Positions 54,084-60,499 of a stretch of 64,000 bases of DNA are shown here, piece by piece. The stretch is taken from IMG/VR virus record IMGVR_UViG_3300005613_000006, positions 64,001 through 128,000 of that record; one strand, 5' to 3'. The DNA comes from a virus. The translations under genes were made by a program, and so were the position numbers. The notes beneath the pieces were generated by a model. The model was not told where the DNA came from. It did not search any database and saw only the letters and a program-made list of their open reading frames with translations. Each line of letters begins with the position of its first letter. Within the stretch, counting starts at the first letter, position 1.

Positions 54084-54189
54084 AGCAATCTCCCAATCAA
54101 TGTGTCTCCAAAAATAACAAACCACTGATTCGTCCAGGCTGGCTCAGTGGGAAGCCTTTATGGGAGCTATCGCCGCTGGCGTAGCTCAG

Positions 54190-54261
54190 TAGCCCATCAG
54201 GGTTCCGCCCCCCGTCTAACGGTTCCGAAGACCGTTGTGCTGTCTATCACACTCATGGGCC
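54190..54261 (-). tRNA. tRNA-Arg(TCG), atypical T-loop
   Basis: ACGGT-CTTCGGA-ACCGT; T-loop GGCGGAA. Confidence 0.75.
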
Positions 54262-54458: not shown

Positions 54459-54461
54459 AAG

Positions 54462-54533
54462 CAGGCCATCGAGGTTACGCTCCCCGTCTAAACGCTTAGA
54501 AGGCGCTTGTGCTGTCTATCACACTCATGGCCC
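54462..54533 (-). tRNA. tRNA-Arg(TCT), atypical T-loop
   Basis: AGCGC-CTTCTAA-GCGTT; T-loop AGCGTAA. Confidence 0.75.
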
Positions 54534-54606: not shown

Positions 54607-55056
54607 ATGAAATGCCTAAATTGCCTCAAGGAAACACCAAATCCCAAGTTTTGTTCTCGTAGTTGCGCCGCTACCTACAACAATCGTAAACACCCAAAGC
54701 GCAAACCCGAGCATAAATGTACTATTTGTGGCGAACGCATAACCGCTGGTCGCTCACGATGCTCCCAACATCGTATTGGTCGTGACATGACCCTAGCGGA
54801 AGCAATCTACACCCAACATCATCGCAGCAGTGCCTTTGCGTTGGTACGTTCCAGAGCTAGAAAAGTTGCCCTGCAACTCGGTCGTACTACCTGTCAACAC
54901 TGCGGTTACAATTTACATGTTGAAGTTTGTCATCGTAAACCTATTGCAGACTTTCCAGAGGACACATTATTGAGTGTTGTCAATCATCCTGACAATCTAA
55001 TAGTTCTGTGTCCAAATCACCATTGGGAGTTTGACAACGGTTTATTACAACTGTAG
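54607..55056 (+). CDS. HNH endonuclease, antisense within tRNA array
   Basis: AGGAG RBS; NPKFCSRSC; EVCH...NLIVLCPNHHWEFD. Confidence 0.88.
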   Translation: MKCLNCLKETPNPKFCSRSCAATYNNRKHPKRKPEHKCTICGERITAGRSRCSQHRIGRDMTLAEAIYTQHHRSSAFALVRSRARKVALQLGRTTCQHCGYNLHVEVCHRKPIADFPEDTLLSVVNHPDNLIVLCPNHHWEFDNGLLQL

Positions 55057-55127
55057 TAGCCCTTGGGGGAATCGAACCCAACCCATCCAGGTTTCGTAGA
55101 CCCGGTGCTAAATCCATTAGAAAGGCT
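55057..55127 (-). tRNA. tRNA-Arg(ACG)
   Basis: CGGGT-CTACGAA-ACCTG; short D-arm. Confidence 0.8.
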
Positions 55128-55197
55128 ATAGTAAATCAGAATGTTTTCGTAGAAAATGGCGACTAGGTTCGGAAAGACGGCGTATGTTGCACCAGCA

Positions 55198-55262
55198 TTC
55201 TAGGCGGGGAATTGAACCCCGAACAATTCTTTTATAGAGAACATGTAGTCTTATCCAGGCAT
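55198..55262 (-). pseudogene. degenerate tRNA (intact T-arm, ATA-centred loop)
   Basis: CGGGG-TTCAATT-CCCCG; GTTCT-CTATAAA-AGAAT; poor acceptor stem. Confidence 0.4.
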
Positions 55263-55269
55263 TCGCCAG

Positions 55270-55342
55270 TGGTACATCGAGGAGTCGAACCTACGCACAA
55301 CTGCCTTATCAGGGCGGTTCGCACAACCGGCGCGCATGTACC
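55270..55342 (-). tRNA. tRNA-Ile(GAT)
   Basis: Loop CTGATAA; GGTACAT/ATGTACC acceptor. Confidence 0.8.
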
Positions 55343-55454
55343 ATAGTACGCACAACAGGTTGCACGTACTGTATAATAAATAGTGCCTATCACAAGTTCT
55401 CGGCAAAATCCGCGAGTGACTGGAGGTTTAGTATAGCGACAGTATTTCATGTAC

Positions 55455-56010
55455 TCCATCTGTGAACACGGTAGTGAACCGCTTCACCCGCTTTGTCCCT
55501 GTTGTTGGGCGCTACCCCTCGCAACAGCACGACACTAGAGTGACACCTGTTCTGGGGTTCTCTCAGTGTAGTTGCAAGCTACCCTTGAGTCACTCCACAC
55601 AATCCTGCCACCCTCGGGCGGTAGCCGGTCTGTGTCCCTTTCGGGTTGGCGGTCTCGCCTTTCGGCTTGACCCGTAGACACTTCCAGTTGTCACACCCGC
55701 ATTTTAGGGGTTACCCCCATTTCCCGAGACTTGTTTATCTATTGCATAAATAGTCTGTAATCCGGTACTTCTGATAAATACGGAAAATCCACTATTCCTT
55801 CCAGTAGTATTCCATGAAAGGCCATGACTCTTACGTTCCGGCTACTCGGGCATTTCGTGGCACCCATACCACTTATCACCCACGCTACACGTTCCGTTGC
55901 CTGGGGTGTAACCCAGCCGTCAGAAACACGCTCTCGCATATTGGTCGGCAAGCCGACCGCCGTTCGCCCCGGTTAGGCAGAACAGTTTGAAAACCCTGCG
56001 ACAAAGGGTT
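55455..56010 (-). ncRNA. large structured ncRNA, GOLLD/ROOL-like candidate
   Basis: No credible ORF; more than 10 hairpins, several with GNRA loops; inside tRNA array. Confidence 0.6.
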
Positions 56011-56013
56011 TAG

Positions 56014-56084
56014 AGACAGCAGGGGGAATCGAACCCTCAAGTTACGGTGTTGCAGACCGCACGCCCGCCATGAGCATCACTGTC
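56014..56084 (-). tRNA. tRNA-Cys(GCA)
   Basis: GCGGT-CTGCAAC-ACCGT; U73. Confidence 0.85.
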
Positions 56085-56113
56085 TTATTCTTTCAGGCAG
56101 CTTTGCTGCCCAG

Positions 56114-56184
56114 TACGGGTACTCGGAATTGCACCGAGACCAACAGCTTGGAAGGCTGTCGTGCTGCTATTACACCACACCCGC
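56114..56184 (-). tRNA. tRNA-Gly(TCC)
   Basis: ACAGC-CTTCCAA-GCTGT. Confidence 0.88.
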
Positions 56185-56190
56185 ATATTG

Positions 56191-56287
56191 CCTACTTTCC
56201 AAGACCTAACACTGGATAAGGGTATTTCACCTTACCCAGGGTTTGCCCGAACATGCGTCGCTTATGTACCTTAGCGTAGAAAGTAAG
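56191..56287 (-). ncRNA. small structured RNA candidate
   Basis: Terminal stem CTTACTTTCT/GGAAAGTAGG; inner CTGGGTAAGG/CCTTATCCAG. Confidence 0.4.
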
Positions 56288-56289
56288 AG

Positions 56290-56361
56290 TGGCTCCCTTC
56301 GGACTTGAACCGAAACCTAACGCCTTAAGAGGGCGCAATGCTACATTGACACCAGAGAGCC
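56290..56361 (-). tRNA. tRNA-Lys(CTT)
   Basis: GCGCC-CTCTTAA-GGCGT. Confidence 0.88.
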
Positions 56362-57100: not shown

Positions 57101-57359
57101 ACGCACACGCTAAACTCTACGTCCCAATGGATTACGAACGCAAAACCGTGTGCGTCGATGGCATTCGCCATCCAAAGAGTCCTGACTGGTTCGCCTTCTG
57201 TGTTTATCCCTTGCAGCAACCCATAGGTGTCGCTTCAACTGCAAGGCCCAGTATCTCTCACCGTACATCTCAGGGCTGTTGCCAACCACGTTCGTCAGCT
57301 TACACCCAGGCTTTCGAGGCCCCCATCGGAAGACTACGGACTGCCGTTTTCTGGACTCA
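57101..57359 (-). ncRNA. ~260-nt structured RNA candidate
   Basis: GAGTCC/GGACTC, CCTTGCAG/CTGCAAGG, GATGGC/GCCATC, ACGCACACG/CGTGTGCGT stems. Confidence 0.5.
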
Positions 57360-57360
57360 G

Positions 57361-57428
57361 TGGAGCGACGGGGACTCGAACCCCGCCTCCGACCGTGCAA
57401 AGGTCAGGTCTAGCCCTCTAGCCACCCC
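57361..57428 (-). tRNA. tRNA-Ala(TGC), short D-arm
   Basis: G3-U70; TGACC-TTTGCAC-GGTCG; 68 nt. Confidence 0.82.
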
Positions 57429-57449
57429 TTTTTGCTCGTCGTACAAGGT

Positions 57450-57477
57450 ATTATACACCGGGAATTCGGTTTGTCAA
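57450..57477 (-). promoter_or_regulatory. promoter TTGACA-N16-TATAAT (CGGTGTATAAT variant) heading main tRNA array
   Basis: Consensus hexamers about 20 nt upstream of tRNA-Ala. Confidence 0.8.
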
Positions 57478-58103
57478 CCAACTTTTTGAAGATTTTCATG
57501 GACAAACCAAGCATCCCAGCCAACTTCCCTCATCCAGGTGTATCCCTTATCCCTCAGAAAAGTGGTAATATCCTCCAAATACTTGCGGTCTCGCCCCTCA
57601 TGGCAGTTGTGTTCCACGGTGATAATTCCAAACACCCAGGTCCAGTCGTAGGATTTCAGAATGTCTAGCTCCGAGCCCTCTGTGTCGATGGACAGGTAGT
57701 TAACGTAGGAAGGAGCGCCGTGTTCGGCCAGGAGGTCATGTAACGTGACGCACGGAATCTCCACTTCCCTCCCAAACTGCTGTCTTTCTTTCTGATACGG
57801 CTGGTCGAGGTCAACAAACTCTGAAATGGTGGAGCAAACACCACCAGAAAAATCAACCTCGGTGAACTTCACGGTTCCGTTGTGGGTCCACACAGCCCGC
57901 TTGTCCCTCTTGCATGTACGCCCGAACTTGTCGTATTGTTCGTCGTTTATCAACGGGTCCACGCAAATTCCTTGCCACCCCGCCTCGTCTAACAAAAACG
58001 AGTTGCTGAAATGCTCCGCATGGCTTGCGCCGACCTCCACATAGAAGCCCTCGTTCCCTACTTTCTCCAACACGAACTTGTCCTGTCCTAACTGACTAGG
58101 CAT
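57474..58103 (-). CDS. FkbM family methyltransferase
   Basis: SQLGQD, YVEVGA, LSIDTEGSE, ITVEHN. Confidence 0.88.
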   Translation of the reverse strand: MPSQLGQDKFVLEKVGNEGFYVEVGASHAEHFSNSFLLDEAGWQGICVDPLINDEQYDKFGRTCKRDKRAVWTHNGTVKFTEVDFSGGVCSTISEFVDLDQPYQKERQQFGREVEIPCVTLHDLLAEHGAPSYVNYLSIDTEGSELDILKSYDWTWVFGIITVEHNCHEGRDRKYLEDITTFLRDKGYTWMREVGWDAWFVHENLQKVG

Positions 58104-59868: not shown

Positions 59869-59905
59869 AGTAATCTCCTATAGCCGGGATTCTGTGGTAG
59901 CTACG

Positions 59906-60124
59906 CTACCGCTCAACATTTATCTTAGCACCTACCCGAGCATCATCGGCCTGTTCATCGCCTAGCTCTGTTTGGCTTGCACCCTCGGTAGTGCAGTCGG
60001 ATGCTGGATGGCGTAACAAGAACATTTCTTTAGCAGCTTCTTCGTCGTACCCCCCTCCGAAACAATCGTCAAAAGAGTCTTCCAACATGTCAGCAAGTTT
60101 ACATCTTGATAATGCCATCAGCAT
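59906..60124 (-). CDS. hypothetical protein
   Basis: GGAGG RBS. Confidence 0.5.
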   Translation of the reverse strand: MLMALSRCKLADMLEDSFDDCFGGGYDEEAAKEMFLLRHPASDCTTEGASQTELGDEQADDARVGAKINVER

Positions 60125-60190
60125 CCTCCTACCTTAAACAGTGGTGTCCTGAGCTTCCTGTAGGGCTACGCCCCACCGTTGAGCCAGAGA

Positions 60191-60499
60191 TTATCTGCGT
60201 GGTTGTGCCTGTTGTCTGTACTGCCACTTCCACCATCGCGCTCTCGCATACGGTCTCCAAACTGGTGGCGCGTATGGATAGCGTGGTACTACCTGTGGTG
60301 GCACCGGCCCAGGCTGGTAGAGCCAGGGTCGAATCCACGGACGGTATGGGTATGGGGCCACGTATGGCTGCGCGTATGGCTGGCCGTAGTATGGTCCCGG
60401 CTGTGGGCCTTGCGGAGCCTGTGGCTCTTGTGCGTCAACAACGCCACATAGCCCAATGCAAAGCAGCACGGCTGCTACGATTGCTAGAATGTTTTTCAT
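60191..60499 (-). CDS. secreted Pro/Tyr/Trp/Arg-rich protein
   Basis: Signal peptide ending VDA; QPY/PYRPW repeats. Confidence 0.65.
   Translation of the reverse strand: MKNILAIVAAVLLCIGLCGVVDAQEPQAPQGPQPGPYYGQPYAQPYVAPYPYRPWIRPWLYQPGPVPPQVVPRYPYAPPVWRPYARARWWKWQYRQQAQPRR

Follow-up and report, generated by a model that had tools for sequence, protein, structure and literature searches.

To our knowledge, large structured RNAs without a protein partner are rare, and GOLLD and ROOL are the two phage classes known so far. Both form RNA-only nanocages of unknown function, and ROOL is defined also by a covariation-supported multi-pseudoknot structure and by homo-oligomeric cage assembly. Non-tRNA RNAs are likewise present in the tRNA cluster of phage T4, i.e., the stable RNAs C and D (species 1 and 2) of about 120-140 nt, which are co-transcribed with the tRNA cluster and freed by tRNA-processing enzymes.

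GOLLD and ROOL are large phage RNAs often located near tRNA islands (bioRxiv 10.1101/2024.12.08.627333). GOLLD is found near or within tRNA arrays and is sometimes covalently linked to tRNAs, its 5' part being less conserved and its 3' part more ornate, while ROOL is an RNA of about 570-580 nt that occurs in phages and prophages, has no associated protein and contains many tetraloop-capped helices; the Rfam profiles of GOLLD and ROOL serve as the field's definition of membership (bioRxiv 10.1101/2024.12.08.627333).

The candidate RNA considered in this work, about 570 nt long, lies between the tRNA-Cys and tRNA-Ile genes of a 173-kb virus, and in location and length it is ROOL-like. It differs from ROOL in that the covariance model of the latter finds nothing at E<=10, and in being a singleton, present in a phage from a saline metagenome. 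With GOLLD it shares the position of a large RNA within a tRNA array, and here too the 5' half is simple and the 3' half ornate, although its length of about 570 nt contrasts with the more than 800 nt of GOLLD and no model match was obtained at E<=10. The T4 RNAs C and D are shorter (about 120-140 nt vs. about 570 nt), and the likeness to the candidate would be one of context.

The window analyzed here is a stretch of 64,000 nucleotides (bases 64001-128000) of a 172,878-bp IMG/VR virus record, which CheckV rates as complete; nearly all genes of this phage are carried by the minus strand, and its tRNAs total about 44. The DnaE-like polymerase of the phage shows at most about 33% identity to anything in GenBank phages, which indicates that the lineage is poorly sampled. 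Relatives were reached via proteins, the sigma-like gene leading to contigs L002-L005 and the FkbM methyltransferase gene to L006-L011, while the neighbours of HNH gene homologues gave no further relatives and a 210-aa protein of L003 led to the same contig again. Assemblies that contain this phage or its relatives come from the samples ENA ERZ27256772, ERZ27256773 and ERZ27256796, JGI 3300005346, 3300017991 and 3300018080, and SRR30965922. The closest relative is L002, a 45-kb Logan contig whose sigma-like gene product is about 80% identical, and which is syntenic with the window phage from the glycosyltransferase genes through the ribonucleotide reductase gene. ORFs of at least 80 aa cover about 92% of the rest of the phage genome, and the longest interval lacking such an ORF on either strand (55057-56340) contains the candidate; an earlier, sequence-only reading of this DNA had described the genome as otherwise gene-dense. 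The local order, in window coordinates, is as follows:

58103-57474, minus strand: FkbM methyltransferase gene, start of the local order
Next after the FkbM methyltransferase gene, minus strand: tRNA-Ala (ARAGORN)
57101-57359, minus strand: 260-nt tRNA-free RNA, directly after tRNA-Ala
In order after the 260-nt RNA, minus strand: tRNA-Ile(TAT), tRNA-Met, tRNA-Lys(TTT)
56808-56341, minus strand: HNH gene, after tRNA-Lys(TTT)
Between the HNH gene and tRNA-Cys(GCA), minus strand: tRNA-Lys(CTT), tRNA-Gly(TCC)
56013-56084, minus strand: tRNA-Cys(GCA) (ARAGORN; weak tRNA-clan match only in Rfam)
55445-56012, minus strand: candidate RNA, about 570 nt, no ORF longer than 75 aa and no tRNA
55372-55420, minus strand: 49-nt spacer, 88% identical to L002 9313-9361 (blastn, nhmmer)
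55345-55370, minus strand: 10-bp hairpin, pair probability 0.98, directly upstream of tRNA-Ile(GAT)
55269-55342, minus strand: tRNA-Ile(GAT) (ARAGORN; Rfam tRNA score only 18.4 bits)
About 55130-55268, minus strand: Y-RNA-like element, between tRNA-Ile(GAT) and tRNA-Arg(ACG)
In order after the Y-RNA-like element: tRNA-Arg(ACG), a plus-strand HNH gene, tRNA-Arg(TCT), tRNA-Arg(TCG)
54125-53460, minus strand: sigma-like gene, last in the order

Several features of this array deserve separate mention. The three tRNA-Arg genes on the minus strand, i.e., TCG (54189-54261), TCT (54461-54533), and ACG (55055-55129), are missed by ARAGORN at default settings and found with a relaxed threshold; the last of them is 90% identical to the tRNA-Arg(ACG) called by ARAGORN in L003. 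On the plus strand, 55292-55356 contains TACGCACAAC or TTCGCACAAC three times, at spacings of 26 and 29 nt; these copies lie partly inside tRNA-Ile(GAT), whose score is weak, and partly just upstream of it. A tmRNA called by ARAGORN at 57360-57772 (minus strand, tag GGYYHFSEG) is probably a false call: its tRNA-like part is the tRNA-Ala reused, it overlaps the FkbM methyltransferase ORF, and the Rfam tmRNA model scores only 13.4 bits.

The 5' boundary of the candidate is set by the 3' end of tRNA-Cys(GCA), with a gap of 1 nt. The interval free of tRNA and ORF extends over 55343-56012, its 3' limit being set by tRNA-Ile(GAT), and the part of it that is not common to L002 spans about 55445-56012. 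The 3' limit given by the sequence-only reading agrees well with this end of the lineage-specific body at about 55445, as homology with L002 resumes at about 55443. All of the stems listed in that reading were present on the minus strand at their positions, one of them with an A.C mismatch:

55731-56012, minus strand: 5' half, a string of local hairpins, most with pair probability above 0.9
56011-55991, minus strand: stem AAACCCT/AGGGTTT
55958-55943, minus strand: stem GGTCGG-CTTG-CCGACC
55455-55730, minus strand: 3' half, GC-rich and multi-branched, with a GUAA and two GAAA tetraloops
55718-55707, minus strand: stem GGGG-GTAA-CCCC
55673-55652, minus strand: stem GGTC-AA-GCC-GAAA-GGC-GA-GACC
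55645-55636, minus strand: stem CCC-GAAA-GGG
55624-55605, minus strand: stem CTACCGCC/GGTGGCAG, with one A.C mismatch
55595/55539, minus strand: stem GAGTGAC/GTCACTC
55582-55568, minus strand: stem GTAG-CTTGCAA-CTAC
55527-55499, minus strand: stem CTGTTG...CAACAG
55487-55474, minus strand: stem GTGAA-GCGG-TTCAC

Confident hairpins of the 5' half include GGUCGG-CUUG-CCGACC, AUAUGC-GAGA-GCGUGU, and CUGGG-UUACAC-CCCAG. The fold of the 3' half is ambiguous, with competing folds and pair probabilities of 0.6-0.7; in one alternative, 55594-55588 is paired with the downstream spacer. Two internal repeats also occur in the 3' half, CAAsCCGAAAGG with two copies 21 nt apart and GGGTAGCnnnCAACnACA with two copies. 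Iterons and terminal inverted repeats, as signs of an origin or a mobile element, were sought in the candidate and nothing convincing was found.

The comparison with known RNA families was performed with the 4227 models of Rfam 15. At gathering thresholds nothing was matched on the candidate in the 64-kb window, and the same result was obtained at E<=10 for 4 kb and, with the laxest filters, for the 676-nt segment alone; the ROOL model (RF03087) found nothing at E<=10 in the whole genome, membership in ROOL corresponding to a gathering score of 99.1 bits or, in published work, to cmsearch E<=1e-5. The cmscan proposed by the sequence-only reading (GOLLD, ROOL, RNase P, tmRNA, and introns) thus gave no family on the candidate at E<=10. 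For GOLLD, the universally conserved 3' region was undetected as well. Group I and group II introns were rejected on the grounds of no Rfam match and no interrupted host gene, the flanks being an intact tRNA-Cys and the spacer shared with L002; furthermore, ARAGORN found no split or intron-bearing tRNA with introns of up to 900 nt. RNase P RNA and tmRNA were dismissed since Rfam gave no match on the candidate and ARAGORN called nothing there, and HEARO, omega RNA, and retron ncRNA since no IscB, TnpB or reverse-transcriptase gene lies nearby and no Rfam HEARO match was obtained. A by-eye likeness to the group I R element and to the RNase P P4 strands was dropped, as Rfam and the order of elements did not support it. 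The same kind of search revealed a divergent RNase P-like RNA nearby (59870-60194), which indicates that its sensitivity was adequate. By these searches, the candidate is not a detectable member of GOLLD, ROOL, RNase P RNAs, tmRNAs, group I/II introns or HEARO.

Next to this stands the folding signal. The candidate (573 nt) has a minimum free energy (MFE) of -206.2 kcal/mol, and z is -3.27 relative to 100 dinucleotide shuffles, all of them less stable; the corresponding z values are -2.69 for the 5' half (56012-55731) and -2.49 for the 3' half (55730-55455). For the latter, the sense strand reaches -107.3 kcal/mol vs. -91.4 kcal/mol for the antisense, the shuffle z of which is only -1.42. Since shuffles can flatter natural sequence, minus-strand windows of the same genome, with GC regressed out, were used as a second background. 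Against it, the full-length candidate has a z of only -1.55, which is comparable to windows over tRNA clusters (-1.8 to -2.5), whereas each half (276-282 nt) falls within the lowest 1.0-1.6% of 192 windows for GC-corrected MFE and within the lowest 1.6-5.7% for positional entropy and ensemble diversity. The 5' half ranks in the lowest 1.0% for MFE, and the 3' half in the lowest 1.6% for both MFE and entropy. The minus strand has four GNRA hairpins, a count in the top 4.6% of windows; the plus strand has none. Foldability of the candidate appears to exceed chance, the signal being real but moderate.

Other parts of the same array provide a context for these values. The 260-nt RNA at 57101-57359 (minus strand) resembles the candidate in that it lies in the same array, on the same strand and right after a tRNA, and in that it has no Rfam match; it contains neither a tRNA nor an ORF. 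In L008/L009 this RNA retains about 90% identity, against about 78% for the adjacent methyltransferase gene, and several base pairs of its clearest helices are preserved by changes in both partners (e.g., alignment columns 8/190, 10/187, 126/157, 128/155, and 203/208). The candidate, in contrast, has no homologue in the collections searched, and it shows no similarity to the 260-nt RNA, which on these comparisons is the better supported of the two as a novel structured RNA. At 59870-60194 (minus strand), a full-length match to RNaseP_arch (RF00373) of 28.6 bits (E=1e-5), against a gathering score of 84, suggests that a very divergent RNase P-like RNA may be encoded by the phage; no such match was found in L002 3000-10100. 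The Y-RNA-like element (about 55130-55268, minus strand) shows a weak YrlA match (17 bits, E=7), a GGCGA...TCGCC closing stem and a tRNA-like T-arm, and it is conserved at L002 9575-9660, the window copy carrying a 20-nt insertion. A sub-threshold TROVE/Ro60 match (17 bits) was obtained with a 553-aa ORF at 157.5-158.3 kb of the genome. As judged from conservation, this phage lineage does appear to keep functional non-tRNA RNAs among its tRNAs, and the presence of such conserved RNAs elsewhere in the array raises the prior for the candidate as an RNA.

The candidate is probably a non-coding RNA. Our preferred, still tentative reading, to which we assign a probability of roughly 45%, is that of a lineage-specific structured RNA of about 570 nt, which would be co-transcribed with the tRNAs and released by tRNA processing, and which would be GOLLD/ROOL-like in context and size without belonging to either class. 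It keeps one half of the sequence-only reading, i.e., a structured non-coding RNA inside the tRNA array, given that the candidate is ORF-free, stable and co-oriented with the tRNAs of an array in which another non-tRNA RNA, the 260-nt one, does show covariation, and it gives up the other half, i.e., membership in or kinship with GOLLD or ROOL, for which no Rfam match at E<=10 was found.

For the candidate we infer transcription, processing, stability, and any function along the following lines. Two promoter-like sites are located upstream on the minus strand, at 57477-57450 (consensus TTGACA-16-TATAAT, just upstream of tRNA-Ala) and at 56861-56832. The former is a perfect sigma-70 consensus, which suggests that this part of the array is transcribed by the host RNA polymerase. 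The scan indicated no terminator-like site on the minus strand between these sites and the candidate, so the latter should be transcribed together with the tRNAs. It would thus be part of a minus-strand polycistronic tRNA precursor, its 5' end would arise from 3' processing of tRNA-Cys, 1 nt upstream, and its 3' end would be formed no further downstream than the RNase P site of tRNA-Ile. Once released, the RNA would fold as two domains of about 280 nt with many tetraloop-capped hairpins, and during infection it might serve in trans as a scaffold or decoy, as has been proposed for GOLLD and ROOL, being unrelated to either. We count against this reading the full-length z of -1.55, the competing folds of the 3' half, the GNRA count that lies only in the top 4.6%, the lack of the candidate in L002, and the outcome of the homologue searches, in which the only other copy was an identical one. 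A bolder form of it, in which the candidate would found a third class of large ornate phage RNA in tRNA arrays, unrelated to the first two and carried as exchangeable cargo, seems to us possible but rather doubtful.

The main rival explanation holds that the candidate is non-functional filler in a hypervariable cargo slot, i.e., decayed or recently acquired DNA, the spacer transcript of which is degraded after tRNA processing, with stems reflecting G-rich composition and short internal duplications. We regard it as unlikely on balance, yet it has to be taken seriously. At the syntenic position in L002 (7959-9288, between tRNA-Gly(TCC) and the 49-nt spacer) the candidate is absent and different cargo is present, namely a 43-aa Cys-rich ORF and one of 378 aa that matches VWA domains weakly (about 21 bits, below the cut-off); neither blastn nor nhmmer found a trace of the candidate in L002, homology resuming at about 55443-55420. 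Because L002 has other ORFs in the slot, the candidate is dispensable for this phage group, and by the comparison of the two contigs the slot between the tRNA genes carries exchangeable cargo. Even relatives that share about 80% protein identity have very different arrays, and the region is flanked by two small, free-standing HNH genes (155 and 216 aa), HNH-flanked tRNA arrays being subject to quick turnover. Short internal direct repeats and the unremarkable full-length stability relative to the genome also fit filler. The same holds for the homologue searches: nothing was found in GenBank phages (blastn, distant setting), exact and stem-tolerant motif scans of IMG/VR and of GTDB genomes returned nothing or four chance matches without complementary stems, and nhmmer and blastn searches of the phage genome itself and of every relative obtained identified only the 49-nt flank spacer and no paralogue. 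The sole other copy of the candidate, in the ENA contig L006, shows no variation, as this contig is 100% identical across 58103-54126; the contigs L007 and L008/L009 end before the candidate, and the remaining ones are likewise too short to extend to it.

Against filler stand the two halves, which separately fall within the lowest 1-2% of genome windows for MFE and have well-defined ensembles. Moreover, there is no detectable relic of a tRNA, of an HNH gene or of the VWA gene of L002 in the window phage, 570 nt of junk would rarely be retained in a dense phage genome, and the strand bias of the tetraloops fits the direction of transcription.

A distinctly less probable explanation is that the candidate is a cis-acting part of the array, i.e., a long structured spacer carrying signals that serve the flanking tRNAs (promoter, processing or stability). 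Consistent with it are a hairpin with a subsequent T-run right after tRNA-Cys, the 10-bp hairpin before tRNA-Ile, and the 3' flank 55420-55372, which is conserved with L002, looks weakly promoter-like and may be a promoter or processing element. This conserved 49-nt spacer, however, appears from the alignment with L002 to be a shared downstream block, outside the 570-nt lineage-specific body; within the candidate itself, neither a promoter nor a terminator was revealed by the consensus scan, and such signals need far less than 570 nt.

Even less room is left for small proteins, which phages encode in large numbers. The candidate has ORFs of 48-75 aa, and nothing longer than 75 aa on either strand; examples are a 70-aa ORF on the minus strand (55951-55739) and one of 71 aa on the plus strand (55462-55677). 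A three-periodic Markov model trained on the long ORFs of the phage itself gave a negative coding score in all three minus-strand frames of 56012-55440, while the flanking genes scored positive, and no usable Shine-Dalgarno sequence was found before the candidate ORFs. Searches of Pfam and PHROG with these ORFs gave no match. The 71-aa ORF has no homologue among 5.8 billion proteins, and the 70-aa ORF, compared with 1.84 billion representatives, yielded only a tandem-repeat translation artefact (P0124). Gene calls on the identical ENA contig place nothing at the candidate. The sequence-only reading had named a conserved short protein as one finding that would speak against an RNA; none was detected in Pfam and PHROG or, for the two ORFs searched there, in the large collections.

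Readings beyond those discussed here share a slight remainder of the probability. The weakest of all, a divergent member of a known family (ROOL, GOLLD, a group I/II intron, RNase P, tmRNA, HEARO or omega RNA), is suggested by the ROOL- and GOLLD-like size and context and by a few short strings that only by eye resemble the group I R element and RNase P P4, and it is largely refuted by the empty Rfam 15 (E<=10) and explicit ROOL searches, by the success of the same search type with the divergent RNase P-like RNA at E=1e-5, and by the lack of an interrupted host gene or tRNA and of a reverse transcriptase, IscB or TnpB nearby.

The candidate is a singleton, absent from the nearest relative of its phage, and its present value is that of a lead. 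It belongs to a little-sampled phage lineage that seems to pack several unusual RNAs into its tRNA arrays. If the preferred reading is true, the candidate would give a new sequence for structural work and would constitute an independent third example next to GOLLD and ROOL, which would suggest that a large RNA beside phage tRNAs is a recurrent solution to some problem of infection.
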